From: a virus
IMG/VR virus record: IMGVR_UViG_3300044606_000094
Location: 1 to 30,506 of that record
Reading direction: 5' to 3' (one strand)
Length of the DNA stretch: 30,506 bases
Part shown: piece after piece, positions 3,486 through 30,506 of the stretch
Numbering within the stretch: the first letter of the stretch is position 1
Layout of the letters: the number at the start of each line of letters is the position of its first letter
Translations under genes and position numbers: made by a program
Notes under the pieces: generated by a model
The model's database searches: none
What the model was told of the DNA's origin: nothing
Seen by the model: only the letters and a program-made list of their open reading frames with translations

Positions 3486-4247
3486 TTATTTTTCCTCTAA
3501 TGACAACGATAGATTAAATAATCTTTCTTTCCTATTAATATTAAAATTAGGAGCATTTACTATTTGAAACTCATAAATATCAGAAATATTAAAATCTTGA
3601 TAAAATATAACTATTATAAATTCATTCTGTTTCATATAAGGCAATAAAATATTTAGATTGTCCAATGATACATTTTCAATTGATAATTTACCTGATACTT
3701 TTGTCCATTCTTTCCAAGAGACTAATTTACCACCAGCCAATCTATAATCATTACCACGCATAGAATCATTTCTTGAAAAATCACTCAACCATTCAGGCTC
3801 TTCAAGAATTGATTTACAGATTTTTAATTCTCCGATTTGTTTTTCTTGATTAGCTATTTGCGTGGTTTTACAATTTAACCTAATTCTGCTGACAGGAATA
3901 GGAGGAGGTTGTGTAATTTCAATAATTGTGTATGCTTCGTTTTCAATTATCAATCCAGCCCCTGGGATATTAATCCAATCTGTGCCATTGTAATATTCAA
4001 AAGTAACAAATTTTAGATTATGATTTAAAATTATTATTCTATTAAAATCTCTGTTTATTTCCTCACCTTGCCAATTTTTGAAAGTGATATCTATATGCTC
4101 TATTATATTATCATTAGAACCTTCACTTACCCATTTAGTAGCCTGATTTTGGTCAAACAAATAATTTTTAGTAGCAGACCCAGATGTAGGTTCTATACTA
4201 CAATATTCATTTATATAATTTTCACTACATATTTTAATACCGTTCAT
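3486..4247 (-). CDS. Distal tail protein (Dit-like) or minor tail protein
   Basis: 253-aa ORF directly downstream of the tape-measure gene; assignment by position and size. Confidence 0.4.
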   Translation of the reverse strand: MNGIKICSENYINEYCSIEPTSGSATKNYLFDQNQATKWVSEGSNDNIIEHIDITFKNWQGEEINRDFNRIIILNHNLKFVTFEYYNGTDWINIPGAGLIIENEAYTIIEITQPPPIPVSRIRLNCKTTQIANQEKQIGELKICKSILEEPEWLSDFSRNDSMRGNDYRLAGGKLVSWKEWTKVSGKLSIENVSLDNLNILLPYMKQNEFIIVIFYQDFNISDIYEFQIVNAPNFNINRKERLFNLSLSLEEK

Positions 4248-6133
4248 ATAGTTGTATTACCTGCCTTTTTAAGTCCAACCTTATAATTTACCTTTGCTAA
4301 TTCAACAGCTGATAGAACGCCTGACCTTGTAGCCTTTGCAAGTTTATCAGCTATCACTGATATATCTGTTTCAGATGTCCCGCCTATTGTTATGTTTTGT
4401 GAAAGGGTTATGTTAGGAGCTCCTATTCCAGCACCTGCACCTGCAGGGATAAGTGAGGATGGCATAGGAACAGGATTATTCTTAATAGAATTAACCACAT
4501 CAGCAGGGATAACCTCCTCGCCTTTATGTAATAGATACGGTCCCGTTTCAGGTATATATCCACCTTCTTTACGAGTGCCTAACAAAAATTTCTCTGCCAT
4601 ACCACCAAACCCTAATCCAGTCAGAGCCTTAAATAATAACCATTTTGCTATCATCTGTGAAACCATAGAGATAAAAGAATTTAAAATGCTTTTAAAAATA
4701 CCACTTAATAATTTTTTAAAATTGTCAAACATATTTCCTGATGACTTTATAAATGTTTCTATTGCTGATGACATTCCAGATATTGTAGATGACCACATCG
4801 CATCCCACGCCTGTGCCCATCCCATACCTGATGATTTCATTCTATCAATAGATTGCAAGAATGACCCTGCCATAGTCGCATTATCACGAGCATATATTTC
4901 CTGAGCTCTAATCATAAGAGCTTCCTTTTGCTCTAATGTTTTCTCATCCCAAGAACCCTGCTCACCATATATAAATTGTAAATAACTTAATTCTGCCTCA
5001 CCTTTTGCCGATAGATACCATTCATCAACTTCTTTTAATTTTCTTTCTGCTTGTTTTTTTGCTTCTGCTAATTCCTCTTCATTTATTGTAGGTGCAGGTT
5101 TTGCTGCAGGTTTTTCAAGAGGTTTAGGTGCAGGTTTTGCTGCAGGTTTTGCAGCATTCTCTTTTGCTATTGCTTTTTCTAATTCTATTTTTGTATCAGT
5201 TAAATTTTTTAAAGTAGTAGAATAATCAAGCCACTGCTTATTTGATATAACATTTGATGTTTGTGCTTGTAAATCTATAATCTTTTGTAAATTTGCTCTA
5301 TATATTTTTATTTGCTCATTAGTAGCATCAAGTCTTATTTCATTCAAACTTTTACCAGCATTACTTGCTCTCTCTTCTGATTTTGTTATTTCTTCAAACC
5401 AGCCAGTTACAGATTCTAATTTTTCTAACCAAAAATCTATTACAGGTATTAATTCCTTTCCAATTCTTTCCTTTAAATCACTTATTCTATTTTCAAAAAC
5501 TTTTAATTTACCGCTTGTTGTTTCTGCTTCTGTTGTAGCGATATTAAATCCATCAGCCAAAAGTTTAGTAACAGCTGCAGCCTTCTCTGTTTCGTCTGTC
5601 ATAGAGCGGAGCTGAGGGATATATCGCTGAAGCATCGTATAATCACCTTGACCAGCAAGAGCGACCATTTTAATAGCACTATTCAAATCAACACCATATG
5701 CCTTTGAAAGTCCAATCGCTTGTTTTGTAGCTTCCCCTATCTTATCAGCAGATATGCCCATTGACAAACCTAACTGCATTACAGCAAGAGCATCCTCATC
5801 GCTTACAGTAGTTATCTTTTGGATTTCAGAAGCTAAATTTTGCAATTGATTAGAAAGCGAATCGCTATATATTCCTTGTGAACGAAGTTGCTGATTAAGA
5901 CGAGCAACAGCTTCCTCTGACTTTGCATATTCATTCCAGCAATCTTTTGCAAAGTCTATTGTTTTATATATTGCAGCACCGCCTGCGAATAAACCACCGA
6001 TTTTTGTGAATGTAGATTTTAAATTTGATGCTGAATCATCAGTTTGATTGATATGACTTTTTGCTTCTTCCAAACCTTTCGGGTCAAATAGAGTTCCAAG
6101 TCGTATGTAGAATTTAGCGAATTCTCCAGCCAT
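4244..6133 (-). CDS. Tail tape measure protein
   Basis: 629-aa, helix-rich, with a low-complexity AAKPAAKPAPKPLEKPAAKPAP stretch; lies between the chaperone pair and distal tail genes. Confidence 0.8.
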   Translation of the reverse strand: MAGEFAKFYIRLGTLFDPKGLEEAKSHINQTDDSASNLKSTFTKIGGLFAGGAAIYKTIDFAKDCWNEYAKSEEAVARLNQQLRSQGIYSDSLSNQLQNLASEIQKITTVSDEDALAVMQLGLSMGISADKIGEATKQAIGLSKAYGVDLNSAIKMVALAGQGDYTMLQRYIPQLRSMTDETEKAAAVTKLLADGFNIATTEAETTSGKLKVFENRISDLKERIGKELIPVIDFWLEKLESVTGWFEEITKSEERASNAGKSLNEIRLDATNEQIKIYRANLQKIIDLQAQTSNVISNKQWLDYSTTLKNLTDTKIELEKAIAKENAAKPAAKPAPKPLEKPAAKPAPTINEEELAEAKKQAERKLKEVDEWYLSAKGEAELSYLQFIYGEQGSWDEKTLEQKEALMIRAQEIYARDNATMAGSFLQSIDRMKSSGMGWAQAWDAMWSSTISGMSSAIETFIKSSGNMFDNFKKLLSGIFKSILNSFISMVSQMIAKWLLFKALTGLGFGGMAEKFLLGTRKEGGYIPETGPYLLHKGEEVIPADVVNSIKNNPVPMPSSLIPAGAGAGIGAPNITLSQNITIGGTSETDISVIADKLAKATRSGVLSAVELAKVNYKVGLKKAGNTTI

Positions 6134-6372: not shown

Positions 6373-6822
6373 CTATTTTTGAGACGACGGCAAAGAGAGC
6401 ATTCCTTTTATTTTCTCGGCTATCCCCTTTAGATTCTTTGTCGTCTGCTGAAAATTTGCGAATATTTTTTCAAAGTCATTTAATTCAGTAACAACTTTTA
6501 TAACTTCGCTAAAATCCTCCATTGAAATATTTGAAAAATCATCATCTGATTTTAATAATATTTTCAATAAGCCATCAGCATTTTCTGTTGCTATTCCTTC
6601 AAGCAAAGCAGGCAAATCATTTTTATCAATACTGTTATTAATTATATTTTGTCTTACAGATTCGTGTAAATTACCAATCAATCTTAAAAGTTTAATATTC
6701 TGTGCCAATGTCATTTTTGTTATCGTATATTTTTTATTATTGACTGTTATAATTTTTTCAACAGGAAGCAAAGTTTCTATTTCACTCATAAATATCTCCT
6801 TTTGTATTTTTAAAAAAAACAC
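6373..6822 (-). CDS. Tail assembly chaperone (G-like); true start probably ATG at 6789 (MSEIETLL) after RBS GGAGAT
   Basis: Position between major tail and tape measure genes; internal RBS plus ATG at 6789. Confidence 0.5.
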   Translation of the reverse strand: MFFLKIQKEIFMSEIETLLPVEKIITVNNKKYTITKMTLAQNIKLLRLIGNLHESVRQNIINNSIDKNDLPALLEGIATENADGLLKILLKSDDDFSNISMEDFSEVIKVVTELNDFEKIFANFQQTTKNLKGIAEKIKGMLSLPSSQK

Positions 6823-6871: not shown

Positions 6872-7750
6872 TTATGTCGTTACATTAAACTGTTCAATTT
6901 TAGTAGCAGCTAATCTATTACCAGCAAGGTCTTTAAGACCTGTTGTAACTACTGCCTGAAATGTATTACTTGCTGTCCAATTATTTGTAGGAGTGAAGGT
7001 AACTTTTTTAGTCGTGGCATTATAAACTAATGTTCCAGCAACCAGAGCAGCAGATGCAGGTGTTGTTGTGTTTATGATAGAAAAAGTATCACCATATACT
7101 ATAGTAGATTGGTCTATCTGTCCAGCCTCTGTTATAGTCCATTCTACAACACCTTTTGTGTCTTTAGTAACAGTTCCACCATCAATAGGAGTAGAAAGAG
7201 CTACGCTTGGAGGTGTGGTGTCAACATCGGTATCAGTAAATGTTCCCATCTCTGCACCTGAAGCTTGAGCATTATCCCACAATACATCCATCTCCATCTC
7301 AACAATAGTTTTATCATCCTTCTTGTATGAGTGAGCACCACTACCTGAAATCACACATTTAGGAAAGTGATACATCCTTGTCCCACCAGCGGGTCCATCA
7401 ACATAAAAGAAAATTTCTCTGTAAAGCTCGCCATTAGAAGGTGCTCCTAATTTTAATACTCCATTTGACACGGCAGAGGTAGGCAATCCAAAAGCCAAAG
7501 CTATATTTGATAATGTAGCCTCAGCCAAATTAAATTTTAGTTTCCCAACTCGTCTAACTTCTTTTGCAGCAGTAGGTCCTGGGTCTTGGTCAGTGTCAAT
7601 ATGTTTTATTTCTCTTTCAAGAGAGAACTCAATGCCATCAGATGTCCTTCCAACATCTACAGCAGCATTAACCCCGCCTGCATAATCTCCTATCTTCACT
7701 TGAGACGCTGCACCGAGATTGAAACCAAATACTATATTTTGCGTTTGCAT
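6872..7750 (-). CDS. Major tail protein with C-terminal Ig-like domain
   Basis: 292-aa ORF in the expected position; Thr/Ser-rich beta-type C-terminus; strong terminator immediately downstream. Confidence 0.6.
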   Translation of the reverse strand: MQTQNIVFGFNLGAASQVKIGDYAGGVNAAVDVGRTSDGIEFSLEREIKHIDTDQDPGPTAAKEVRRVGKLKFNLAEATLSNIALAFGLPTSAVSNGVLKLGAPSNGELYREIFFYVDGPAGGTRMYHFPKCVISGSGAHSYKKDDKTIVEMEMDVLWDNAQASGAEMGTFTDTDVDTTPPSVALSTPIDGGTVTKDTKGVVEWTITEAGQIDQSTIVYGDTFSIINTTTPASAALVAGTLVYNATTKKVTFTPTNNWTASNTFQAVVTTGLKDLAGNRLAATKIEQFNVTT

Positions 7751-11999: not shown

Positions 12000-12028
12000 A
12001 TTATATAAAATTATTTAATTGTTGTCAA
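12000..12028 (-). promoter_or_regulatory. Sigma70-type promoter P1 (TTGACA, 17 bp, TATAAA) upstream of the prohead protease gene
   Basis: Minus-strand -35 TTGACA at 12023-12028 and -10 TATAAA at 12000-12005; short leader with no SD before ATG 11979. Confidence 0.55.
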
Positions 12029-14157
12029 GTATTTTTTTTCACAACAGGGAATATAGTGCATCTACAATTAATAGAATCACCGGGCAAACTCATATCCCCA
12101 GGGGCTTGTCCTGTCGCTCCAGTTGATAGAACAAAATCCTCATCAATAGGGATTGCTCCATGTATCCCATATCTATGTCCTGCCTCTGCATGTGCCTCAC
12201 GCGTAACCTCGTCATAAGCAGGCAACCATCCTTTGAGCTCAACCATTTCATTTTCTCTGTATGCTTCAATTGAGCCAGCATTCAAAGATGATATAACTTC
12301 AGTCTGTGCTATACGAAGCGTTCTATAATCCCGCTCCATATCAAAGACTTCAGCAACTCGTTTAGATATAACCTCTATACCTGAACCGAGAGCTATTTCT
12401 TCATCAATAACTTTCTGTAATTTTTTTCTTGTAGTGTTATTTATATTTTGAGCCCATTGAAAACATTTAAGTTTTATCCAGTCCTCTATCCTTGACTTTG
12501 ATTTTTCTTGCATAACAGGAGCATCTTTTTTAGTCCATTCTTTAAGCAATAAATTCTCTGAATCTCTGCCTTCATAAATTGATTTGCGTATATGAGGTGT
12601 CATAACTTTTTCAAGTTCTTCATCCATCTCTCTGTCTGATATACCAATATCCATTAGATTAGGTATTTGTCCTGTATATTTAGAAAGTGCTTTTAATATT
12701 TTATCTCTTTGATTATCAAAATACTTTCTAACATCTTTTTGCATCGGCTTACTTAAATTATTTGCTAATATAATAAAGCGATGATGTTTTGATTTGAGCA
12801 TAGCCCTTGATGGAGTGATATTTGCTTTATATCCTTCATCAAATTCTTTCATCATCTTTTCATAATTAAAGTTAACAGAATTAGAATTATTTCCTTCAGG
12901 CATTGAGCCAGAAGGATAAACAGACACAGGAATATAAGACACATCAGTAATGCCTTTTACTTTTGAGAAAGGCAAGTCATAGGCATCTATAAGCGTGTCC
13001 ATAGGTATGCCCATTTGCCAATATCTATTTATATAGTTAGATCGTTTTTCCTCATCAGCCCTTAAAGCCTTTATCTCTGATTCAACTATATCAAAATAAA
13101 TTTTGCCTGTTTTATCAAACAGAGGAACATAAAACTCATTTAATATCTGACATATCTTTTCAGCTTTTGGCAATATCGTAGATCGCCAATATATCTTTTC
13201 TTGCTCCTCTGAATTTGCATAATTTGCGTATTCAAATATCCCGACCATAGCAGGAGGAACGCCAAACACTGCACATATATCTTCCCTGCTCATTTTAGTT
13301 TGTAAAACGAAATCCATATCTTTTTGTGAAACGCCAAGCATTTCAACTTTTGCTCCTTTTTCAATGAATACAACGCCATGAGAATTTTTATTTCCTTTAT
13401 ATTGCTGATTCCAATTTTCACGCATACGATTGCGTTGCTGTTGTGAGAGAGGATTAGGTGCAACAATAGCAATATCAGGACGAGCAGAATTTTTAAGAAA
13501 ATTAAGATTCCATTTGCTACCTGCATTATGTGTTTCTACTCCAATGCGTGCTGCAGCAAGAGGTGCAAGTCCATAGTGATAATCAAGAGGATTAAAGTTT
13601 TTAAAATGTATTATTTCCTCTGGCTTAAATATTATAGATTTTCCATTAACCAAATACTCATAACCTTTTATAAATTCGTTTGGATTATCAGATTTCAAAA
13701 TCTTTACATATGAAGGAATCAAAGGCCAGATCATAGTTGGAATACCTTTTGAATTATTAACTTCTAATTTCCAGTAAGCATTCCCAGTAAGCTCAAGACC
13801 GCCCTGTGTCCATTCAAGTAAATCAGACATTGTCATCTGATTATTAACTTTGTAAAGCAAATCAAGAGCAGGATGCTCATATATAGTTTCATCTTTTTCA
13901 TTGTAGAGAGCGATAGGAACAGAACTTATATCTTGTATAATTCTATGAACACAATTAAAAACCCATATGCTATCAGCATAAGCCTTTAAATAAGAATCAT
14001 AAGAATTTTGAGAGGGAGAAGGCAATTCATCATCAAGCTCAAATAATTCTGAATAGGTAGGACTTAAAAAAGATTTTTCTTTTGATGTGAATATATTTTT
14101 AATATTTTTAGCACTTCTGATTATTTTTTCAAACATTTGAATATTATAGTAAAACAA
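12025..14157 (-). CDS. Portal protein fused to a C-terminal SPP1 gp7-like (Mu F-like) head morphogenesis domain; likely start ATG at 14136
   Basis: 710-aa ORF after TerL. C-terminus KGWLPAYDEVTREAHAEAGHRYG...INCRCT matches the gp7 / Mu F family signature. The listed start is TTG; the first ATG is at 14136. Confidence 0.65.
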   Translation of the reverse strand: MFYYNIQMFEKIIRSAKNIKNIFTSKEKSFLSPTYSELFELDDELPSPSQNSYDSYLKAYADSIWVFNCVHRIIQDISSVPIALYNEKDETIYEHPALDLLYKVNNQMTMSDLLEWTQGGLELTGNAYWKLEVNNSKGIPTMIWPLIPSYVKILKSDNPNEFIKGYEYLVNGKSIIFKPEEIIHFKNFNPLDYHYGLAPLAAARIGVETHNAGSKWNLNFLKNSARPDIAIVAPNPLSQQQRNRMRENWNQQYKGNKNSHGVVFIEKGAKVEMLGVSQKDMDFVLQTKMSREDICAVFGVPPAMVGIFEYANYANSEEQEKIYWRSTILPKAEKICQILNEFYVPLFDKTGKIYFDIVESEIKALRADEEKRSNYINRYWQMGIPMDTLIDAYDLPFSKVKGITDVSYIPVSVYPSGSMPEGNNSNSVNFNYEKMMKEFDEGYKANITPSRAMLKSKHHRFIILANNLSKPMQKDVRKYFDNQRDKILKALSKYTGQIPNLMDIGISDREMDEELEKVMTPHIRKSIYEGRDSENLLLKEWTKKDAPVMQEKSKSRIEDWIKLKCFQWAQNINNTTRKKLQKVIDEEIALGSGIEVISKRVAEVFDMERDYRTLRIAQTEVISSLNAGSIEAYRENEMVELKGWLPAYDEVTREAHAEAGHRYGIHGAIPIDEDFVLSTGATGQAPGDMSLPGDSINCRCTIFPVVKKNT

Positions 14158-14196: not shown

Positions 14197-15663
14197 TTAG
14201 TTTATATAACTTGCTCCGCCATTCTCTGATGCTGAACAAGCAAGAGCACAAGACCAAAAAGCATCGCCGTGTCCTTCATGAGTTTCAGGAGCATGCAAAT
14301 CATTATCAACTGATAATATTTGATTTTTCTGACGAATATCAGGCAAAAGGATTATAGTCGGTTCTGGCTTTGCTCTCACTCTGCTTTCAAATAATGCAGC
14401 TATTTCGTTTTTACTTTTAGATGTAAAGACAACAGGCTCCATACATTCAGGCAAAGCTCCCTTTTCAAAATAGCTTTCAAATTCACTTCTTGAATTATCA
14501 TATTGTAAACAAGTGATAGGTATATTATTACAAAGCTCTGTAAGATATTCAATCTGTTCTGAATAGTCCCAACCATCCATCCATTTAGAAAATATTTGAA
14601 TAAGTTTATTTTTCTTACTCTTAAATAAAACTAAATGGCTCGGATGTCTTTTCTTACCAATATCAAAACCACCGTATATCTCTTCATCATCAGCTATCTC
14701 AAAAGTATCAGGGTCTATTTCTTTTAAATCATAATCAATAACATCATTTAATTCTGCGTGTGTGAAATAACCCTCCTCACCACGAACAGGCATACATAGA
14801 TACTCTTTATTAAAAGCCTTCTCGCTTGAGATGTCAGCCTTTATTCGTTCCAATTCTTCAAGAGGAAATTTTTCAGGCCACAATGATTTTTTTATTCCAT
14901 TCTCTACATAGATTGCTGGCTCTGTCTTACAATAGAACCCTGGCCTCTTTTTATTTTGATTAAACAAATCTGTAGGGTCTTGGCTCGTTCCCCAGCAGTG
15001 TAAAAAACCACCCTGTTTAGGCATTGACATAATCTCTTCCTCAAATATCCTTGAAATCTCTTTCATTTCTTCAAGATTAATTTTTCTTTGTGTAGCATCT
15101 TTTAAAATATCATCACATATCACACCGTCAGGGTGCATACCTCTCTTTGCTCCTCTAACTCCAAATGGGATGATGCGAAGTGTTATATCTGTCTTTGGCC
15201 ATCTACAATATATCACACTATCGGCAGGGCTTAACCATTCAATATTTTTTAGTTCAGTTATCTGAAGCATATAATCTTTTATTTTCCTTGTATGATAGAC
15301 TGCTAAATCTTGCTTGTAAGAAAAATATAATATTTCATATGATTTTACTTTTCTAAAAAAAAGCCAGATACAAAAGGCATGTAATACCTCTGATTTGCCA
15401 TGCAAGCGGGCTGATTCTTTTGAAGTGAAATTATAATGTTGTAATTCATCACACCATCTATAAATATGTTGTCCAGATAAGAAAACATCATTATTTTTTA
15501 TTATTGCTTCTGACCAGATATGATTATAGAAATATTTAAATTCAGTAGTGGCTATGTTTTTTACTAATTGATTCTTGTATCTTTTTAATCTCTTCAATCT
15601 CTCTATCAATTGATTTGTTGATTTCATTGATGTCATCAGATAAATCCTCATTTGATACATCAA
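14197..15663 (-). CDS. terL: Terminase large subunit
   Basis: 488-aa; N-terminal ATPase-like region (RLHGKSE, GVICDDIL) and C-terminal acidic nuclease-like region (HEGHGDAFWSCALA); sits between TerS and portal. Confidence 0.7.
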   Translation of the reverse strand: MMYQMRIYLMTSMKSTNQLIERLKRLKRYKNQLVKNIATTEFKYFYNHIWSEAIIKNNDVFLSGQHIYRWCDELQHYNFTSKESARLHGKSEVLHAFCIWLFFRKVKSYEILYFSYKQDLAVYHTRKIKDYMLQITELKNIEWLSPADSVIYCRWPKTDITLRIIPFGVRGAKRGMHPDGVICDDILKDATQRKINLEEMKEISRIFEEEIMSMPKQGGFLHCWGTSQDPTDLFNQNKKRPGFYCKTEPAIYVENGIKKSLWPEKFPLEELERIKADISSEKAFNKEYLCMPVRGEEGYFTHAELNDVIDYDLKEIDPDTFEIADDEEIYGGFDIGKKRHPSHLVLFKSKKNKLIQIFSKWMDGWDYSEQIEYLTELCNNIPITCLQYDNSRSEFESYFEKGALPECMEPVVFTSKSKNEIAALFESRVRAKPEPTIILLPDIRQKNQILSVDNDLHAPETHEGHGDAFWSCALACSASENGGASYIN

Positions 15664-15982
15664 GCTCGCCAGATAATTCTAACTTTTGTTTAATAGCAAA
15701 TTCATCTGGACGCTTGCGTTCTAAATATTTGAATGCTAACTCCGCATTACCTTCGTTAATTGCTTTATGTAAAGTATTCCTCGCATTTAATACGGGTTTC
15801 TCTAATAGCATTTCTTTCCGTTCGGATATTTTGGGATTTCTTTTTAAAAAATCGGATAATGCAGCCTTTGAAATACCTGCAAAATAAGCTGCTTCTGCAT
15901 CACTACACCCCAAAGCCCAAGCCGTCTCTAATTTCTGAATTGTAATTTTATAATCTTTTCCATCAAATTGTTTTCGACCCAT
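15542..15982 (-). CDS. terS: Terminase small subunit (HTH-containing)
   Basis: N-terminal LETAWALGCSDAEAAYFAGISKAAL HTH and acidic coiled-coil C-terminus; immediately upstream of TerL and overlapping its start. Confidence 0.55.
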   Translation of the reverse strand: MGRKQFDGKDYKITIQKLETAWALGCSDAEAAYFAGISKAALSDFLKRNPKISERKEMLLEKPVLNARNTLHKAINEGNAELAFKYLERKRPDEFAIKQKLELSGELDVSNEDLSDDINEINKSIDREIEEIKKIQESISKKHSHY

Positions 15983-15988
15983 AGCAAT

Positions 15989-16017
15989 AGTATAATCAAT
16001 TATTTATTGTTTGTCAA
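15989..16017 (-). promoter_or_regulatory. Sigma70-type promoter P3 (TTGACA, 17 bp, TATACT), probably giving a leaderless TerS mRNA
   Basis: -35 at 16012-16017, -10 at 15989-15994, 6 nt to ATG 15982, no SD. Confidence 0.55.
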
Positions 16018-16031
16018 GTTTTTTCTATAAA

Positions 16032-16298
16032 TTAATTTATTAGTGTGAAAACTATTTTTTCAAAAATACCAGTATAATTTGGATAGAGATTATCATAAAC
16101 CTCCTTCATTTCAGGAGGGATTAAAAATTGTGTCTTATCAATTATTTTTACTTTGGCGAAAGGTGGACGTGGTCCTACTGTTAAAGTAATAATTTCTCCT
16201 ATATTAGGATTTCTGTTACTTTTTTTACGAATAGTATAATTTTTTTCACCTGACAATATTGGTTTAACATATTTCTCTTTGAACCATAAAGATTTCAT
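16032..16298 (-). CDS. ASCH (PUA-like) domain protein
   Basis: 88-aa; KYVKPILSGEKNYTIRK resembles the ASCH core; strong RBS AGGAGG; start overlaps the stop of the upstream gene (ATGA). Confidence 0.55.
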   Translation of the reverse strand: MKSLWFKEKYVKPILSGEKNYTIRKKSNRNPNIGEIITLTVGPRPPFAKVKIIDKTQFLIPPEMKEVYDNLYPNYTGIFEKIVFTLIN

Positions 16299-17377
16299 TT
16301 TCTACCTCCTATATATCTAAATGAAGCCGTAAGTCTCCTAAAAGATGAAATTTTTTTATGCATAATATTATTAGGAGTACAATGTCCTAATCTCCTTAAT
16401 TGCCATTTAGGACTTCTTGAACGATGAAAAATCATAGCAGGATGAGATGTTGTAGATATAAAAATAAATCCTTTTTTAGTTAAATAATTACCTAACCATT
16501 CTGATAATATATTGCCTATTCCAAGCCCCTGATAATCTGGTAAAACTACTGTTCTATGTTCTCTTTTATACTTCATACTTGAAGAATGAGGAAAATGAAT
16601 ATAACTGGTAAAAGCAACTGGTTTATTTTCCCAATAAGCAACAAAACATTGTGCTTGATCCGCTATATCAGCACTTAAATAATGATTTCCTCTAAAAATT
16701 TTCCACATACTTCTATCTGTTTTATAGATTTTGAGTTTAATTTTGGGGCGTCCTTGAAGAGACCTCCAATTAAATTCATTTTTTGTAACATCATAAATCC
16801 AATCAGGTTGTAACCATTCAATAATATCATAATGACAAGATAATAAAACTATTTTTTTATCTGGAAAATTTTTACGAAAAACTTTTTGAAGACAATGAGA
16901 TACTGTTTTTGCAACATCTCTATCTATAACAGAAGTAAATTCATCTATTACTATATTCTTATATTCGCTTAATATAACTCGCACCAAATCTACCCTAAAT
17001 TTTTGTCCATTTGAAAGTGTATGCCAAGATTTAAGCCACGCTACTGGAGAACTTAAACCAATATTATTTAATACTTCTATAATTTTTTTTATTGGAATAT
17101 CTTTATTAAAATCATTTAAAAAAGAATCATCTTTTTTCCATTTAAATCCTGTTATCATTTTAAAATCTTTAAAAATCTCAGAAGCAATAACTGTTTTACC
17201 TGAACCTGAATTACCAACAATTAATCCTATATTCCATTTTTTATTTTCTAATGGCAATGAAACATCCCATTCGTGTTTTACTTCAGTCATATTAGGAATA
17301 TCAAATATTCCAATTACACTATCAACTCTATAACTCTTTTTCACTGGAGTGGTTCTTACAATGTGATAATTCGGCAT
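16295..17377 (-). CDS. ABC-type ATPase domain fused to a GNAT-like acyltransferase domain
   Basis: Walker A GNSGSGKT, ABC signature-like LSNGQKFRVDLVRVIL, Walker B IVIDEF, H-loop-like LLSCHYD; C-terminal VVLPDYQGLGIGNILSEWL resembles GNAT motif A. Confidence 0.55.
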   Translation of the reverse strand: MPNYHIVRTTPVKKSYRVDSVIGIFDIPNMTEVKHEWDVSLPLENKKWNIGLIVGNSGSGKTVIASEIFKDFKMITGFKWKKDDSFLNDFNKDIPIKKIIEVLNNIGLSSPVAWLKSWHTLSNGQKFRVDLVRVILSEYKNIVIDEFTSVIDRDVAKTVSHCLQKVFRKNFPDKKIVLLSCHYDIIEWLQPDWIYDVTKNEFNWRSLQGRPKIKLKIYKTDRSMWKIFRGNHYLSADIADQAQCFVAYWENKPVAFTSYIHFPHSSSMKYKREHRTVVLPDYQGLGIGNILSEWLGNYLTKKGFIFISTTSHPAMIFHRSRSPKWQLRRLGHCTPNNIMHKKISSFRRLTASFRYIGGRK

Positions 17378-17880
17378 TTTTTCCCCTTTTTTGTAAATTC
17401 TTCATATATTTCTCTTTGCTCATTTTCATCTTCACAAGTAATAACAACTTCAAAAATAGATATTAACTCTGGTATTTTAATATTTGGTGTATTAACATCT
17501 ATATCAAAGCCAACTTCTACAAGCATTTCTTTTGAAAATTTAGAATTAAGTATTTCCATATCCCAATCTCCGACATTCTTATTTGAACGAAGATTATACT
17601 CTTTCAATTCATTTTCAGTTAACTTTCTGCTTGGAACTCTGACATCAATATATTCATCACCTCTGCCTAAAGCCTGCATTATCTTTAATCTTTGATGACC
17701 TGCGATTATTGTATTGTCAGTATTGATTGCGGGTATTTCAGCAAGATTAAATTTTTCAAGACTTTTAGTCAACTGTTTTTCTTGCTCGGGTGTGATTTTG
17801 CGAGGATTATGTTGGTAAGGTATCAAATCTGATATCTTCCTTTTTTCTGTTTTCCAGAATAAACTTTTATTTTTTTTCAT
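17356..17880 (-). CDS. ParB-like nuclease domain protein
   Basis: LIPYQHNPRKITPEQ...IPAINTDNTIIAGHQRLKIMQALG matches the ParB N-terminal (sulfiredoxin-like) core; overlaps the start of the next gene by 22 nt. Confidence 0.7.
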   Translation of the reverse strand: MKKNKSLFWKTEKRKISDLIPYQHNPRKITPEQEKQLTKSLEKFNLAEIPAINTDNTIIAGHQRLKIMQALGRGDEYIDVRVPSRKLTENELKEYNLRSNKNVGDWDMEILNSKFSKEMLVEVGFDIDVNTPNIKIPELISIFEVVITCEDENEQREIYEEFTKKGKKCRIITL

Positions 17881-18095
17881 ATTAATTTTATCCTATCTTT
17901 TATTTTATCATTTTTTAATAGAGTTTCAAAAACATCATTTGTTATCATAAAAAACATTAAAGAAATATGCTTGCCATAATTTATCAAATAACATTCACGG
18001 CAAGGATAAACATATTTTTTATTTATAATCAATTCTGCCTTTTCATTATCTAATAAAAACTTCTCTATTTGTTCTATACCAGTTAAATTAATCAT
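17877..18095 (-). CDS. Hypothetical protein
   Basis: 72-aa ORF in a tight gene run. Confidence 0.35.
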   Translation of the reverse strand: MINLTGIEQIEKFLLDNEKAELIINKKYVYPCRECYLINYGKHISLMFFMITNDVFETLLKNDKIKDRIKLI

Positions 18096-18098
18096 ATA

Positions 18099-18374
18099 TT
18101 ACTTCTTTATACTTTTATACCAATCAAACAATTTTTTATTTAACTTGATGATATAGTAATGATTATTTTTACGAGGGTCTTCATAGTCTATCATACCTAT
18201 TTCCCTCATATTTCTCAAATACCTGCTAACAGATAGACATCCATCACCATTAGGTATTATATCCCTCTCAACCCCTTTTGTATGGATCATAAGCATATTA
18301 TTTTTACTCCTATGCTGGATGAGAAACTTAACTATACTTTTTTCTATCTCTGTTTTTTCTGTGAATGAAAACAT
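18099..18374 (-). CDS. Hypothetical protein (possible winged-helix DNA binder)
   Basis: 91-aa basic ORF with RBS AGGAGG. Confidence 0.35.
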   Translation of the reverse strand: MFSFTEKTEIEKSIVKFLIQHRSKNNMLMIHTKGVERDIIPNGDGCLSVSRYLRNMREIGMIDYEDPRKNNHYYIIKLNKKLFDWYKSIKK

Positions 18375-18375
18375 A

Positions 18376-18534
18376 TTAATCCTCCTTTTTATTTACAATC
18401 TTTTCATATATAGATTGTAATTTATTTAACCAAAAATTTATGACAGGAATTAATTCATTTCCAATTGCTTCTTTTAAATCACATAATTTATTATTAAAAT
18501 CTTCCAATTTACCGATTTCATTTTCTTTTTTCAT
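18376..18534 (-). CDS. Small ORF not in the track (about 52 aa, MKKENEIGKLEDFNNKLCDLKEAIGNELIPVINFWLNKLQSIYEKIVNKKED)
   Basis: RBS AAGGAGG then ATG at 18532-18534; fills the whole gap between flanking genes; shares a diverged segment of about 100 bp with the tape-measure gene (5427-5525). Confidence 0.4.
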   Translation of the reverse strand: MKKENEIGKLEDFNNKLCDLKEAIGNELIPVINFWLNKLQSIYEKIVNKKED

Positions 18535-18721
18535 TTTTCCTCCTTTTATAAGCAATTGTTTTATTATATACTAATGTGTAATATTCAGTTCCATCTGATT
18601 TACATCCTTTGCATTTAAAATTGCATTCAAGAATATTACCCTCAATTGTCATAGAATAAAACGATATTTTTCTACCACATACAGGACAAGTGCCATTTAT
18701 TTTTCCTATATATTCTTTCAT
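18518..18721 (-). CDS. Zinc-ribbon small protein
   Basis: 67-aa with CPVCG ... CNFKCKGC cysteine pairs. Confidence 0.45.
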   Translation of the reverse strand: MKEYIGKINGTCPVCGRKISFYSMTIEGNILECNFKCKGCKSDGTEYYTLVYNKTIAYKRRKNEKRK

Positions 18722-18761
18722 TATATTGTTTCTCCAGTGTTAATCAAACTTCTGCCACAAA

Positions 18762-19007
18762 TCAGTAATAAAGTGCTTTAGCAATTTCCTTTGCAATTTC
18801 TACTGCTTTTTTATAAACACTACTCCCTTCTCTTGCTTTATAATCTTTATAAGGAAATTCTGACCATGCAATATATTCATAATTATCATGCGGAAATAAT
18901 TTTACAATTTTTGCATTTTTATCAATGAATATTTCATATTTATGTCCATTAATTATAATATTTCTTTTTTCACCTGCTATTATCTTTCTTAATATTTCTT
19001 TTTTCAT
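18762..19007 (-). CDS. Hypothetical protein
   Basis: 81-aa ORF with RBS AGGAGG. Confidence 0.4.
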   Translation of the reverse strand: MKKEILRKIIAGEKRNIIINGHKYEIFIDKNAKIVKLFPHDNYEYIAWSEFPYKDYKAREGSSVYKKAVEIAKEIAKALYY

Positions 19008-19099
19008 CTTTCCTCCTTATTTTTTATCAACTAACAATTTAAACAAACAGATTATAACTATCATTCCTAAAAAAATATTTAAGTATATAATCATATATT

Positions 19100-19585
19100 T
19101 TACTTATTTATCCTTCTATCTTTACCTTCAATTTTTACAAGCTTACATATTCCTGCTATCCTGCTTGCTATTCTATCATCGTAAACCTTTGCCAATTCTG
19201 ATATAGATAAATTTGAGTTAATAATCAGTGCCTCTGGATTATATAGTGTTCTTTTATCAAGCACTTCATAAACGACAGAATATGAAAACTCGGTCAATTT
19301 CTCAACGCCTATATCATCAATAATCAAATGTCTTTGATTGACAATTTTATTTATATATTCATATTCATCAAGAGCTGTTTTACAAGCCCTGACATCTCTG
19401 ACTATGTCAGATACTTTTTTATATAAGAAATTTCCGAAATGCTTGCCGATGGCAATAGATGTGTATGTTTTACCTACGCCTATGCCACCATAGATATACA
19501 AACCAAATTTCGGATAACCAGAACATTGTGCAATTATTTTTTTAGGTATGTTTTTATAATCAGCATTATTTATCAAATTTAGCAT
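19100..19585 (-). CDS. DnaC/IstB-like AAA+ ATPase (replicative helicase loader)
   Basis: Walker A GGIGVGKT and Walker B LIIDDIG; directly downstream of the initiator gene. Confidence 0.7.
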   Translation of the reverse strand: MLNLINNADYKNIPKKIIAQCSGYPKFGLYIYGGIGVGKTYTSIAIGKHFGNFLYKKVSDIVRDVRACKTALDEYEYINKIVNQRHLIIDDIGVEKLTEFSYSVVYEVLDKRTLYNPEALIINSNLSISELAKVYDDRIASRIAGICKLVKIEGKDRRINK

Positions 19586-20546
19586 ATTTCTCCTCTATTT
19601 CTTTATCTGTCATTTTTATCATATTAGGCAATTTCTTTTTGCCATTGCCAAGATTTATATATCGCCCCTCTAAAACTTTTGGCATATTGGTAGGCCTGAT
19701 AAGCCATTCAAAATCAGCCCGCCACCCGTGATCGTTCTCACCAAGAAGAAAAGGCATATTTTTAACATCATTAAAATATTTCTCCCACCATTCAAGATTA
19801 TTCCTTTCCTCCTTGTTTTCGTTTATCCTTGCCTTAAGACAACTTTTTCGTTGCTTATTAAATATTTTACATTCGGATAGATAACTACCTAAAATATTAT
19901 TATAACTATTTTTAATGTCTTCCAATAACTTATCTATATCATTTAAATTTTGTGATTGTTGTTTTATTGGTTCTGTTGGTTCAGGTTGAGGTTGAGTTTC
20001 AATTTCATTTTTTATCTCTCCCTCTTTGGGGGGTAGGGGGGTATAATCTTTTATATTATTATCATTTATCTTATTATCCTTTATTAGATGGGTCATATTT
20101 GATACTTCTGAATGGTCATTTTTGATACTTCTGAAGGAACATTTTTGATACTTCTGAAGGTTCATATTTGTTAGTTCTGAATTATATTTTTGATAGTTTG
20201 TTTTTTCTGTTAAAATTATAAATCTTATTTTACCACCGCCATTTTTTATTATTGTTTTAGTTTCTATGAAACCATTTTCTTTTAATTCTTTCAGGGCTCT
20301 TTTAATTCTAATTTCATTGACATTGAACATCTTGCATAAATGTTCTGTGCTAAAATAGAATTTATCTGATTTATAACTTATAACAAAAGCCAATATTTTA
20401 AGTGCAGTTCCTGATAGGTCTTCCTGATATAGCCAATCAGGTATAACAAGAAATCTTAACTTAAATAAAGTTTCTTGGCTTTCTTTCAATAATTCTAACT
20501 CTTGCTTATTTATCTTTACCTCATTATTTATATTTTCGTTTTCCAT
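19566..20546 (-). CDS. Replication initiator / replisome organiser (N-terminal winged HTH, C-terminal conserved phage domain)
   Basis: N-terminal HTH-like LSGTALKILAFVISYKS...IRIKRALKELKENGFIE; C-terminal GWRADFEWLIRP...KVLEGRY; iterons embedded in the linker; partner loader gene follows. Confidence 0.6.
   Translation of the reverse strand: MENENINNEVKINKQELELLKESQETLFKLRFLVIPDWLYQEDLSGTALKILAFVISYKSDKFYFSTEHLCKMFNVNEIRIKRALKELKENGFIETKTIIKNGGGKIRFIILTEKTNYQKYNSELTNMNLQKYQKCSFRSIKNDHSEVSNMTHLIKDNKINDNNIKDYTPLPPKEGEIKNEIETQPQPEPTEPIKQQSQNLNDIDKLLEDIKNSYNNILGSYLSECKIFNKQRKSCLKARINENKEERNNLEWWEKYFNDVKNMPFLLGENDHGWRADFEWLIRPTNMPKVLEGRYINLGNGKKKLPNMIKMTDKEIEEKYAKFDK
20093..20200. repeat. Iteron array: about 4.5 tandem copies of a 23-bp unit (CATWTTTGATACTTCTGAA-like), putative replication origin
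   Basis: Tandem copies start at 20093, 20116, 20139, 20162 and 20185, flanked by an AT-rich stretch (20032-20092) and a G-tract GGGGGGTAGGGGGG (20018-20031); the 23-bp period is not a multiple of 3. Confidence 0.6.
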
Positions 20547-20558
20547 TTAGTCCTCCTA

Positions 20559-20798
20559 TTACTTAACTATATCATATGTTTTTTTAAATGTTTTTTCTTT
20601 ACAGATATATTTTTCACCATCAACACCAAACATTAAATAGTCACCTTTTTTACCACGCCTAACACCTTTCTTTGTTTTTACAATAAATCCTTCAGGAAAA
20701 TTAAGTTGTAAGGCATGTATTATCACAGGTTTTTTTCTGCATTTAACAATCCCTTCAAAATTTTCAAGTGTAATCTTATTTGCATTGAATGGTTTCAT
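20559..20798 (-). CDS. Hypothetical protein
   Basis: 79-aa ORF with RBS AGGAGG. Confidence 0.4.
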   Translation of the reverse strand: MKPFNANKITLENFEGIVKCRKKPVIIHALQLNFPEGFIVKTKKGVRRGKKGDYLMFGVDGEKYICKEKTFKKTYDIVK

Positions 20799-22188: not shown

Positions 22189-22818
22189 TTAAACTCTTGT
22201 TATTGTTTTTTTCTTGGCTATAACGCCCGGTAAAATTTCCCTTTCTTGTTTATAAGCTTTGGCCAATCCATTCAGGAAAGGCATATTAATCTCAACTGCA
22301 TTTATATCAGCCTTGCCATCAGCAATAGCTTTTATAAGTGTCATTTTGTCAACAATTTCGGCATACCAAGATATAGAAAAAGAGGCTGATCCTGTTGATT
22401 TCACTGTTTGAATTATCTGAGGGGCCTGAGTTATAGGCCTTCCTGTTTTTTCAGCCTTCTCTACAGACTTTTGGAACTTCTCATCGGCTTTCTTTTGTAA
22501 TGCCTCCCTGCGTGCGTTCTCGGCCGTAACAAAAGCCCCAATCTTTTGTCTTAATTCACTTTCAGCACTTTTAAGAGGATCAATCATTTCATCCCTCAAT
22601 CCTCTTATCTCATCGTAGGCTTCTTTTGCCTTTTTAACAGCAGGGTTTACCTTCTCCTCTATTTTTGTTCTCATTGATTTTATAGCAGAAAGGAATGATG
22701 TCGCCCTTTCTGTGTCCTTCTCTGACTTTATAATTATTGATTTTGCCTCAATAATTATATTCTTGCTTTCATTTGTTAGTTCATTTTTTATTTCACTTGT
22801 TATTATTTCGTTTTCCAT
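22189..22818 (-). CDS. Hypothetical helical protein associated with the recombination module
   Basis: 209-aa charged, coiled-coil-like ORF immediately downstream of the exonuclease gene. Confidence 0.4.
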   Translation of the reverse strand: MENEIITSEIKNELTNESKNIIIEAKSIIIKSEKDTERATSFLSAIKSMRTKIEEKVNPAVKKAKEAYDEIRGLRDEMIDPLKSAESELRQKIGAFVTAENARREALQKKADEKFQKSVEKAEKTGRPITQAPQIIQTVKSTGSASFSISWYAEIVDKMTLIKAIADGKADINAVEINMPFLNGLAKAYKQEREILPGVIAKKKTITRV

Positions 22819-23537: not shown

Positions 23538-24434
23538 TTATTCAGCAGGCTCAATATTAACCACATAATGATATTCGTTATCTTTATATAGTTCTGTTCT
23601 ATATGTTATCTTGCAAGGATAACCAACCGCTGATTCGCAATTACTGACTAATCCCTCATCCTTTACATTGACGAGGAAGAAGTCATCATTAATTTTAAGA
23701 GCCCTTGTTTTTTTACCTTGTTTTAAAGATAAAAACTCATCAGGCACTCCGATGATTTCCTTTAATTCATTTTCTTGTTCTGGTCTTTTTATTTCTTGTT
23801 TTTCTTTTTTATCTTCCTGCTTGTTTTCTTTTTCTTCATTTGTTTGAGGTGCTTTAATATCATCAGCATTGACATTGATTATTTTGCTTTTATCAATATC
23901 AACCATATTGTCTGGAAGTTCGTCAGCAGTGTAAGGCATACCTGAAAACTCGTCAGGAAAGGCCATCCTGAAACCCTGAGCGATGGCTACTTTTTTTAAC
24001 ATCGTTTTAGGCTTATTCATCCACATTGAATTTCCCTGATTATATTCAGAGAACTCTACCTCGTGGACAAGAGGCTTATCCCAATCCTTTCTATAGATAG
24101 TAACCACTGCAGTTAAGCCTTTATTTTTTATATCTCCATTTGTGGTTACTTCCCAACCAGCGAGCTTACCTGTCCTTTCAGCTCTTTTGAGATACACCTC
24201 ATATCCTGTTATGATTGACAACTTCCTTCCGTTCTTTGTTTCATAAGGTATACAATAGATTTCCCTTTTGAAAGGGTTTAATTGGAAGGCAACCGCAACC
24301 TCAACGAATTGCGTTATCTCATTGTCTTTAAGAGTATTAGATAAACCAAAACTCTTAAGATAAGAGATAACTTTTTCAGAAGTTATCATCTCAGTTTGTT
24401 TTTTTTCTGTCAATTCCCTATTTTCATTATTCAT
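23538..24434 (-). CDS. recT: RecT-like single-strand annealing protein
   Basis: QFVEVAVAFQLNPFKREIYCIPY...GYEVYLKRAERTG and MLKKVAIAQGFRMAFPDEF resemble the RecT family; paired with a nuclease gene. Confidence 0.6.
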   Translation of the reverse strand: MNNENRELTEKKQTEMITSEKVISYLKSFGLSNTLKDNEITQFVEVAVAFQLNPFKREIYCIPYETKNGRKLSIITGYEVYLKRAERTGKLAGWEVTTNGDIKNKGLTAVVTIYRKDWDKPLVHEVEFSEYNQGNSMWMNKPKTMLKKVAIAQGFRMAFPDEFSGMPYTADELPDNMVDIDKSKIINVNADDIKAPQTNEEKENKQEDKKEKQEIKRPEQENELKEIIGVPDEFLSLKQGKKTRALKINDDFFLVNVKDEGLVSNCESAVGYPCKITYRTELYKDNEYHYVVNIEPAE

Positions 24435-24444
24435 TCTTCCTCCT

Positions 24445-24762
24445 TTATTTTATTTTTTCTAATAATCCCAGTTCATAAGGGATTAACTTTATCTCATCAG
24501 TAGACAAGACTTTACCTTCAGGAAGTCTTGTAAGCACCCTGAAAACAAGAGCTTTATCCTCTGTTTCCATCTTTACCTGTAATCTATTCGTTGGGATTTT
24601 AATTTCCAATAAACAGCTCATAAATTCAGCAGTAGCCTGATGACCAACTGCTGAAGTAAACTCCCCCTTAAGGAGCTCTTTAGCCCCTTCAAGAGAAATT
24701 TTATTGAACTTATATTCACCCCAGTCTGTTAAAACTGGAGTATTAAGAACATACAACTTCAT
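24445..24762 (-). CDS. Hypothetical protein
   Basis: 105-aa ORF, start overlapping the HTH gene stop. Confidence 0.4.
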   Translation of the reverse strand: MKLYVLNTPVLTDWGEYKFNKISLEGAKELLKGEFTSAVGHQATAEFMSCLLEIKIPTNRLQVKMETEDKALVFRVLTRLPEGKVLSTDEIKLIPYELGLLEKIK

Positions 24763-25686: not shown

Positions 25687-26369
25687 ATATCCTCCTTTTT
25701 ATCCTCATCATCATCATATGAAAACTTTTTCATCTCCCATTCCTTATCCAGATAGACAATATCTATCTTTAGATTTTCGTCTATCTTTTGCAAAAATAAA
25801 TCATTGCCTGGCCTATCCACATATTCCAAAAGATGGAGGGCTGAATTACCCCTTTTGTATATTTTTTTGCTAAACAGGATTGGATAAATATCCATTGCAG
25901 GCAATTCAATATCTTCATTTAGCACGCCTGCCATAGAGATGTGGAGTTGGCCACCTCTACAAATTTGCATCGTTTTGCTATCCTTTAAATACTCAACCCA
26001 ATAATCCTTACATCCCGAACTACCAGTTTTAACCCTTACTCTGTAAGGGCTAACTCTTTTAAGGTGCATTTCCTTAAAAGAGATCTTTTCAGTATCTTCT
26101 ATTTTTCTTAAGAGAGTATAAAGCATACTCTCTTCAAGAAATTTACCTGCTATCCTCTGGATGGTTAACCTCCCAAAGTAATCTATATTAAAATAATAAC
26201 GCCCCCAATTTTTAAGGGCGTCATTATATTTTACAATGATATGCTTTACATATTTATCATTGTAATTAGAAGTTTCAACATTTTCATTTGTTTCATTTGT
26301 TTCAGAGGTTTCTATTACCTCTGTGTTTTCTGTATTTTCAGTGTTTTGTTTTTGATTTCTTACTATCAT
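25677..26369 (-). CDS. Hypothetical protein with acidic N-terminal repeat (TENTENTEVIETSETNETNENVETS)
   Basis: 230-aa ORF; short tandem DNA repeats at about 26275-26340 encode the acidic repeat; overlaps the RadC-like gene start. Confidence 0.45.
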   Translation of the reverse strand: MIVRNQKQNTENTENTEVIETSETNETNENVETSNYNDKYVKHIIVKYNDALKNWGRYYFNIDYFGRLTIQRIAGKFLEESMLYTLLRKIEDTEKISFKEMHLKRVSPYRVRVKTGSSGCKDYWVEYLKDSKTMQICRGGQLHISMAGVLNEDIELPAMDIYPILFSKKIYKRGNSALHLLEYVDRPGNDLFLQKIDENLKIDIVYLDKEWEMKKFSYDDDEDKKEDICL

Positions 26370-26987: not shown

Positions 26988-27347
26988 CTAACTAAAATAT
27001 TTTTCTATTTCAGAAATGGCTTCCTGTGCTCCATGACAGACTACTGCTTTATATCCGTTTTCATTTAATTTTTTCAGGAAGGCTTTTTGATTTTCAGATA
27101 CAACTCCACCATGAGTTTTTTTCATCTCAATAAAAAGACCGTGATATTTTTTTCTTGCTTCAAATATCATCAGATCAGGTGTGCCTGCAGTGTAGCCCAT
27201 TCTTTTCACACGAATAGCCTTCATCATAGATAATCTTTCGCCTGATGCTCCTGCAGTAGTGAACAAAATATCAGGTTTAAATTTGCGTAAATAATTGACT
27301 ACGATTATTTGATTTTGTTCTTCCTCGTATCTCATATAAATCACCAC
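26988..27347 (-). CDS. VRR-NUC domain nuclease
   Basis: GTPDLMIFEARKKYHGLFIEMKK ... ENQKAFLKKL matches the VRR-NUC PD-(D/E)XK core. Confidence 0.75.
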   Translation of the reverse strand: MVIYMRYEEEQNQIIVVNYLRKFKPDILFTTAGASGERLSMMKAIRVKRMGYTAGTPDLMIFEARKKYHGLFIEMKKTHGGVVSENQKAFLKKLNENGYKAVVCHGAQEAISEIEKYFS

Positions 27348-27622: not shown

Positions 27623-27794
27623 TAAACATCTTATTTAATATATCTATTACATCATCCAAATCCTCATATCTTCCACTTTCAGAATTAAAGTTATCATAAA
27701 GAATATATAAGTCATAATATTCTTTATCATCATAACTATTTTTTGTTTTGTAAAATCTCAACTCACGAATATTTTTTAATTTATCTTTACTCAT
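27612..27794 (-). CDS. Hypothetical acidic small protein
   Basis: 60-aa ORF with RBS AAGGAGA. Confidence 0.4.
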   Translation of the reverse strand: MSKDKLKNIRELRFYKTKNSYDDKEYYDLYILYDNFNSESGRYEDLDDVIDILNKMFNEN

Positions 27795-29772: not shown

Positions 29773-30506
29773 TTAAAATATTCTTGTAACCGCAAAATAG
29801 CTAAAAATTGGACGAAGCACTAAATTGCTTCCAACAGTATATTTAACAAAAGTTTCTATATAATCATTTACATTAAGACAAGCAGGAACTGCCACGCCAA
29901 AAGTAAGCCCGCCATGTGCGTTTGGCCCACTTGTACTCCCTTCTTGATATATGAGACCATTTATATTAAGTGCTAAAAACTTATCTGACACTGTGCCATC
30001 CCCACCCTTAAATAAATTAGCATTAACTGTAATTAAATAACACCCGTTTTGCGTAACAATATATTTATCGTTTGTTGTGTCATAATATCCATTTTTGTTA
30101 ATAATTATGTTATCCCAATCAACCTTATAATAAGTATTATCCGCTGGTAATGTTTGCTCCGAACTCCTTTTAGCAAAAAACACTGCTCCGTTATATGATA
30201 AAATTCCATTAGTAGTTATATTTACAATATACCCGTCGCTTGAATTACTATTACTATCAATAGTCAAAGCATACTGCTGGCTTGAATTGGCATTAATTGT
30301 TATACTTGAATTAAATACACTGTTATTCTGATATTTATTCTGCCCAGTCCAAGTTTGAGTAGCAGATAACACAGCATCACCGCCACCAGCAGGACTACCC
30401 CAAGATACAGTTCCTGAACCATTTGTTTTTAGGAATTGACCATTTGACCCATCAGCGGTTGGTAGTGTATAATTGCCTATTTTTAGATTTGATGTAAACC
30501 TACCAT
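29773..30506 (-). CDS. Tail fibre protein, 3' part with C-terminal C1q/TNF-like globular domain (in frame with 1-742 across the circular junction)
   Basis: Frame stays open from 30468 to the listed ORF at 30372 (checked). C-terminal sequence YKVDWDNIIINKNGYYD...KYIVTQNGCYLITVNA resembles a C1q-type jelly-roll head. The listed start at 30372 is a GTG inside the open frame. Confidence 0.65.
   Translation of the reverse strand, partial: GRFTSNLKIGNYTLPTADGSNGQFLKTNGSGTVSWGSPAGGGDAVLSATQTWTGQNKYQNNSVFNSSITINANSSQQYALTIDSNSNSSDGYIVNITTNGILSYNGAVFFAKRSSEQTLPADNTYYKVDWDNIIINKNGYYDTTNDKYIVTQNGCYLITVNANLFKGGDGTVSDKFLALNINGLIYQEGSTSGPNAHGGLTFGVAVPACLNVNDYIETFVKYTVGSNLVLRPIFSYFAVTRIF
30471..30506. repeat. 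Terminal direct repeat, copy 2 (identical to 1-36)
   Basis: Exact 36-nt identity with 1-36; repeat may extend beyond the window edge. Confidence 0.9.

Follow-up and report, generated by a model that had tools for sequence, protein, structure and literature searches.

The replication region of an uncultivated phage carries a diverged copy of an internal segment of the phage's own tape measure protein (TMP) gene, and this copy lies within a 52-codon open reading frame (ORF). The locus raises the question of whether the small ORF is a gene with a role of its own, a scar left by recombination, or a frame that happens to run over a DNA or RNA element.

Genome organization

The window, that is, the whole stretch of DNA that was analysed, consisted of 30,506 bp with 32% GC. 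Its first 36 bases were identical to its last 36 (1–36 / 30471–30506), so that it could be taken as a circularly closed, complete genome of 30,470 bp. All evident genes were carried on the minus strand. The gene of a RecT-like annealing protein, with exonuclease genes alongside, came first in transcription order and was followed by those of the replication initiator and the DnaC-like helicase loader, several small genes, the ParB-like nuclease and ATPase-GNAT fusion genes, and then the small and large terminase, portal-MuF fusion and major head protein genes. In the tail module, the TMP gene, which is the source of the copied segment, was located downstream of the tail tube and tail assembly chaperone genes, with the distal tail genes after it, and its product matched the PHROG TMP families phrog_991/339/24. 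The coordinates of these features are collected in Table 1.

Table 1. Positions of the genes, repeats and signals discussed in the text, numbered along the 30,506-bp window.
Feature	Position	Strand	Remark
Small ORF, 52 codons	18376-18534	-	ATG 18534-18532, TAA 18378-18376
Shine-Dalgarno AAGGAGG	18539-18545	-	4 nt upstream of small-ORF ATG
Repeat copy 1	5408-5516	-	in TMP gene, about aa 206-242; protein-level similarity aa 204-254
Repeat copy 2	18409-18517	-	TMP-derived core of small ORF, codons 6-42
TMP gene	4244-6133	-	629 aa
Tail assembly chaperone	6373-6822	-
Tail tube	6872-7750	-
Portal-MuF fusion	12025-14157	-	710 aa
ATPase-GNAT fusion	16295-17377	-	360 aa
ParB-like nuclease	17356-17880	-
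Gene following the small ORF	18099-18374		91 aa
Cassette gene, zinc-ribbon	18518-18721	-	67 aa
Cassette gene	18762-19007	-	81 aa
24-bp "RBS + MKKE start" junction	18522-18545	-	repeated at 18995-19018, 95.8% over 24 bp; the two flank the cassette
DnaC-like helicase loader	19100-19585	-
Replication initiator	19566-20546	-
RecT-like annealing protein	23538-24434	-
STIV B116-like protein	24445-24762	-
VRR-NUC nuclease	26988-27347	-
ORF across the circle junction	742 to 29773	-	479 aa
9-bp inverted repeat TTACAATCT-N10-AGATTGTAA	18393-18401 / 18412-18420		in last 15 codons of small ORF
Early-region inverted repeats	22729-22759, 26054-26082, 26103-26141, 26231-26265, 27696-27727		candidate operators or terminators

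Searches against GenBank phages did not return any match to the small-ORF region (megablast) or to the TMP (tblastn). The best link to a cultured phage was weak, the portal being only 28% identical to the portal of Geobacillus phage GBK2, and because no close cultured phage was found, no host could be assigned. Neither Rfam nor tRNA scanning of the window gave a match, and no integrase was found among the proteins scanned.

Several other genes of the window had unusual features. The ATPase-GNAT gene has the ParB-like nuclease gene on one side and, on the other, an 88-aa gene that is followed by that of the small terminase; it encoded a P-loop/ABC-like ATPase fused to a GNAT acetyltransferase and matched phrog_11143 (E=2e-97). 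The portal carried a fused MuF/head-morphogenesis domain, and two further genes could be annotated, one for an STIV B116-like protein (Pfam PF08960, E=1e-28) and one for a VRR-NUC nuclease. The 479-aa ORF, which spans the circle junction and is absent from the linear ORF listing, showed a signal/TM-like N-terminus (MKMKKIIMMMILTLININIYAG), a weak C1q-like C-terminal region and a duplicated internal motif, NGNVGIGTT[TS]P, with a 52-nt direct repeat (63–114 / 396–447, 79% identical); it probably encodes a tail fibre or receptor-binding protein.

An in-frame copy of a TMP gene segment

Self-BLASTN of the window aligned the two copies over 109 bp without gaps at 81.65% identity (E=3.6e-24, 107 bits), which was the best internal repeat of the window, the 36-bp terminal overlap aside. 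The best off-diagonal scores in 60 Markov-1 simulated windows were 37.5 ± 3.7 bits and did not exceed 51.8, so that the identity is better than would be expected by chance in sequence of this composition. The repeat had been placed by eye at 18427–18517 and 5427–5525 with roughly 80% identity in an earlier reading made from the letters alone (hereafter the sequence-only reading). Its identity value held, whereas its coordinates had to be corrected, as the block begins at 18409, 18 bp before the stated position, and the TMP copy extends only to 5516. The end strings that it described as shared, TAACCAAAAAT and AATTTACCG, both occur in either copy, and the peptide motif that it reported for the TMP, KELIPVIDFWLEKLES, was found at aa 226–241.

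The two copies shared their orientation and, on the minus strand, their reading frame. BLASTP comparison of the small ORF with the TMP revealed 27/51 identical residues (53%, E=4e-15) with one 3-residue gap. At the nucleotide level the copies were ~18% diverged, which is about three times the 5–7% seen between the TMP region of this phage and those of sampled relatives. The in-frame duplication of a TMP segment is thus real, and the orientation, frame and divergence agree with the ancient intragenomic duplication that had been offered as one of the possible origins.

Features of the small ORF and its product

The product of the small ORF (MKKENEIGKLEDFNNKLCDLKEAIGNELIPVINFWLNKLQSIYEKIVNKKED; peptide MKKENEIGKLEDF...NKKED) had a predicted mass of 6.1 kDa and was acidic (pI 5.4) and hydrophilic (GRAVY -0.64), unlike a membrane peptide. 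A single-sequence AlphaFold model consisted of one helix spanning residues 2–51 with a mean pLDDT of 90.8. Pfam and PHROG scans did not give any match for this product.

The start codon is preceded by AAGGAGG-N4, a ribosome-binding site (RBS) as strong as had been proposed and of the same class as those of evident genes. Only 38 of the 827 minus-strand ATGs had AGGAG or GGAGG 4–16 nt upstream, and most of these were the starts of evident genes. The stop codon was located 1 nt before the ATG of the next gene, and the last codons (KKED) contain the Shine-Dalgarno sequence of that gene. With a start codon preceded by a Shine-Dalgarno sequence, an open frame and no overlap conflict with its neighbours, the small ORF fills the space between the zinc-ribbon and 91-aa genes and fits the operon without a gap. 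The supposed intergenic gap is therefore occupied by the ORF itself, and the ORF had not gone uncalled, since the JGI annotation already lists the same 52-aa product as a hypothetical protein. The ORF was located in the replication module between the genes of the DnaC-like loader and the ParB-like protein, five genes upstream of the small terminase gene and 12.2 kb from the tail module. It is probably translated.

The TMP as the source of the copied segment

When 1.84 billion representative proteins were searched by phmmer with the 52-aa product, the product itself was returned, followed by TMP-type sequences, namely three of 500–600 aa (P0002, P0003 and P0008; E of 2e-6 to 3.5e-4) and one 188-aa sequence that is apparently a TMP fragment. 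The small ORF aligned to residues 187–243 of the full-length matches, P0002 being 62% identical, followed by P0003, P0008 and P0009. The other matches were repeat proteins and were judged spurious. In an alignment with further TMP homologues, the copied segment proved to be the motif that characterises this TMP family, GK[LIM]xxFxNxxxDLKE[KR]IGxELxPxxDFWLxKL. When IMG/VR was scanned at the DNA level with a degenerate pattern for DLKExIGxxLxP, 20 loci were found, all in open frames of 326–1007 aa and none in small ORFs. No other small homologue was present among the 1.84 billion proteins searched by phmmer, and word-index searches with the ORF alone or with a profile of the ORF and TMP segments recovered only the small ORF. 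Since the segment occupies the same place in distant TMPs and no other small homologue was found, the TMP can be regarded as the original and the small ORF as the derived copy, which by these comparisons is rare and lineage-restricted.

The AlphaFold model of TMP aa 1–300 predicted a helical core at aa 65–205 (pLDDT > 90) followed by a long helix at 206–258, in which the confidence drops along the length. The copied piece corresponds to this helix and is the C-terminal end of the most conserved region of the TMP. A PDB sequence search with the TMP and a Foldseek search with its N-terminal model gave no meaningful match. Farther along the TMP, at aa ~336–357, a low-complexity stretch rich in Pro, Ala and Lys (KPAAKPAPKPLEKPAAKPAP) was observed, which differs in sequence from its counterpart in the close relative L003 (3340–3410).

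When compared with the TMP family (PHROG 991/339/24-type; P0002, P0003 and P0008), the small ORF shares the GKLxxFxNxxxDLKExIGxELxPxxDFWLxKL motif and a similar predicted helix, and with the resident TMP it shares 53% amino-acid and 82% nucleotide identity. However, it is 52 aa long against 500–1000 aa, lies in the replication module rather than between the tail assembly chaperone and distal tail genes, and does not have the conserved core, the length-determining coiled coil or the C-terminal region, so that it cannot measure a tail. By sequence, it is homologous to TMPs over one helix only and is not itself a TMP, given its length, its gene position and the lack of any match to a TMP profile. 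A literature search for TMP-fragment paralogues or TMP-derived small-protein families found nothing specific, and the most fitting description of the ORF is that of a small accessory gene of a phage, derived from a structural gene by partial duplication. Most small phage genes are orphans of untraced origin; here the origin is readable as an in-frame fragment of a structural gene, which makes the locus a clean example of viral gene birth by partial duplication.

Relatives and mosaicism around the small ORF

A metagenome scan and cluster look-up recovered the small ORF as three alleles on 1, 3 and 4 contigs (JGI, ENA and Logan), in each case intact at 52 aa. Eight contigs from independent assemblies rule out an assembly artefact. 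The ORF was thus neither absent nor disrupted in the relatives, as it might have been if the sequence-only reading were wrong; nevertheless, this intactness has little statistical power, given how close the relatives are, with no more than 3 nt of difference in the ORF, and given that the ORF lies in a low-divergence patch of a mosaic region. Scans of IMG/VR with the flanking genes gave only the unrelated loci L001 and L002, and a contig scan did not find a prophage copy. The small-ORF family was confined to one rare, uncultivated lineage.

The window and its relatives L004 and L008 differ immediately upstream of the ORF. In the two relatives the DnaC-like gene is the immediate upstream neighbour of the small ORF, while the window has a 473-bp two-gene cassette inserted exactly at the RBS and start of the small ORF, the segment between the two flanking copies of the 24-bp direct repeat being 18546–18994. 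The small ORF has thus been kept in two upstream contexts, with and without the cassette. The 24-bp junction carrying the RBS and ATGAAAAAAGAAA occurs at three gene starts of the window, the third being at about 24420–24446. The cassette clearly illustrates how genes are gained or lost through recombination at conserved gene-start sequences. Mosaic junction ("boundary") sequences occur at phage gene starts, and the small ORF resembles such cases in starting with a reused 24-bp RBS/start, the nearest two copies of which flank a variable cassette. Such junctions would explain the shuffling beside the ORF and perhaps the gain of its start, but not its TMP-derived body.

Between the window and L004, its closest relative, 3/159 nt differed in the small ORF compared with 26/276 nt in the next gene. 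This low divergence was initially considered as nucleotide-level conservation; the idea was dropped since a sliding comparison placed the ORF in a ~450-bp low-divergence patch of a mosaic region. Over 15549–20559 the divergence from L004 was patchy, with 0–14 mismatches per 100 bp; the 91-aa gene was 9.4% diverged and the ATPase-GNAT gene 0.6%. Such patchiness indicates that mosaic recombination has taken place recently in this phage population.

Selection or decay

The overall dN/dS between the two copies was ~0.95, and all three allelic differences (N33D, Q40E and I42V; 3/3) were non-synonymous, the window allele altering a TMP-invariant Asp (D33N). Both results could be expected of a non-functional scar, in which TMP DNA was pasted in by illegitimate recombination behind a recycled RBS and start and has been decaying slowly, with a peptide that has no role. 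The same could be said of the 24-bp junction that provides the RBS and MKKE start, which is used at two other gene starts and is clearly involved in cassette shuffling, and of the presence of the gene in one lineage only. In addition, ~10 random substitutions leave a TMP-derived frame open in 39% of cases. If the ORF were such a decaying scar, it would be an ordinary by-product of phage mosaicism.

The distribution of the substitutions speaks against decay. The comparison was based on 20 columns conserved among six TMPs and 16 variable columns, 13 columns being TMP-invariant. The pN was 0.02–0.04 in conserved columns and 0.34–0.39 in variable columns (Fisher p about 4e-5), with a pS of ~0.31. 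Amino-acid differences from the TMP affected 1/20 conserved and 9/16 variable columns in the L004 allele (Fisher p=0.0017), and 2/20 and 11/16, respectively, in the window allele (p=0.0004), a column bias of which part must stem from constraint on the TMP branch. At least eight residues of the small ORF (D12, N14, K16, L17, C18, A23, N26 and Y43) were seen in no TMP and must therefore have arisen on its own branch. In the L004 allele, none of these eight fell in the 13 TMP-invariant columns (hypergeometric P about 0.016, hand calculation). Neutral simulation with 8–12 substitutions retained an open frame together with all 13 invariants in only 0.4–2.6% of trials.

Substitutions thus avoided the family-conserved residues far beyond the expectation of neutral decay, and it is on this avoidance that selection on the peptide can be argued. 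The ORF moreover ends exactly at the start of the next gene and was kept in both upstream contexts. Phage genome compaction tends to remove useless sequence, and 159 bp of it would be expected to be lost from a gene-packed 30-kb genome. The recombination scar, which the sequence-only reading had listed among its options, consequently appears rather unlikely, as the substitutions fit a selected peptide better than a neutral scar. On the sequence evidence, the small ORF is likely to be a selected, translated gene.

Possible role of the product

A lineage-specific gene that arose by in-frame partial duplication of the TMP gene, and whose product acts by mimicry as a free copy of the TMP helix, is the modestly favoured explanation of the locus. 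About 110–150 bp of the phage's own TMP gene, or that of a very close relative, would have been copied in frame into the replication/early module, where the segment would have gained a start codon with a strong RBS and a stop codon abutting the next gene. The product would be a free-standing, long amphipathic helix bearing the most conserved motif of the TMP family. A lone helix of 50 residues without its own fold would most likely work by mimicry, taking the site where the TMP helix docks; because it retains the family-invariant residues (all 13 in the L004 allele), it should fit the surface that the TMP helix contacts. This surface might belong to the conserved TMP core (aa 65–205) or, in the TMP trimer, to the equivalent helix; the tail assembly chaperone is another candidate partner, as is a host or competitor protein able to recognise the conserved TMP region. 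The gene order, with the ORF in the replication module, suggests that synthesis of the peptide probably precedes that of the tail proteins or is independent of it. A small protein mimicking part of the TMP had already been suggested in the sequence-only reading; the intact ORF and the selected-peptide pattern agree with the protein, and the mimicry is an inference.

A narrower and improbable role would be that of a decoy. A helix made ahead of the late structural genes may bind a host immune sensor or a prophage-encoded blocker that recognises TMPs and so mask it by the time the actual TMP is produced, or may act as a dominant-negative poison of tail assembly in co-infecting related phages. 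Bacterial immunity has recently been shown to target the conserved helical part of the TMP (Avs18, SNIPE and Tab), which makes a free copy a plausible decoy. TMP-directed defences do exist. [quoted passage not shown] The prophage protein Tab acts via the TMP to block tail assembly, and a phage-encoded anti-Tab protein counteracts it (PMC10884400). The small ORF similarly copies part of a conserved TMP region of the alpha-helical kind recognised by Avs18 and SNIPE, and is located in the replication module upstream of terS and not with the tail genes. Its variable columns have also changed fast, with a pN at least equal to pS, as an arms race might produce. With Tab and anti-Tab of Pseudomonas phage JBD26 (PMC10884400), the resemblance would be that of a phage-encoded system centred on the TMP, in which a small counter-protein neutralises a TMP-recognising protein.

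However, the case is purely circumstantial. Avs18 and SNIPE are host sensors of Proteobacteria for which no decoy has been described. The known TMP sensors use ~130 residues, as in the activation of Avs18, or other regions, while the copy here has 37–50 residues. Tab and anti-Tab have no sequence relation to the small ORF; Tab acts through the TMP C-terminus, and anti-Tab was not reported as TMP-derived (PMC10884400). No comparable decoy was described in the literature found. If the decoy reading were true, the ORF would encode the first protein of counter-defence or competition shown to have originated as a copied piece of the structural protein that is sensed.

The inverted repeat

The sequence-only reading had described a perfect inverted repeat at 18392–18420 as part of the feature. 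The repeat exists, but its start was one base off, and it does not belong to the feature. It was perfect only in the Q40 alleles and matched at 8/9 positions in L004, where codon 40 is GAA, and the TMP copy had no counterpart of it. The window had 24 counts of perfect 9-bp inverted repeats, at about 13 loci, compared with 5.7 ± 2.8 in simulations. The stem was AT-rich and without a T-run, and a search for terminator-like sites near the small ORF was negative. Its coding location, the 8/9 match in L004, the lack of a terminator and the many such loci led to its rejection as a functional element, and the inverted repeat is judged incidental.

That a DNA or RNA element (an operator, terminator, recombination site or regulatory RNA) resides on the inverted repeat or on the duplicated segment, with the ORF being incidental, is very improbable: a perfect 9-bp stem with a 10-nt loop and the excess of such repeats over Markov simulations (24 against 5.7 counts) would suit it, but the stem is imperfect in L004 and missing from the TMP copy, the region had no terminator-like site and the window no Rfam match, the copies lie in direct orientation on the coding strand so that pairing of their transcripts is impossible, 13 kb of essential genes would be lost if the copies recombined with each other, and conservation tracks codons and protein columns rather than the stem, which leaves the DNA/RNA-level reading largely refuted. 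Elsewhere in the window, perfect inverted repeats of 11–12 bp and one imperfect 17-nt repeat were clustered in the early region at 22.7–27.7 kb (Table 1).
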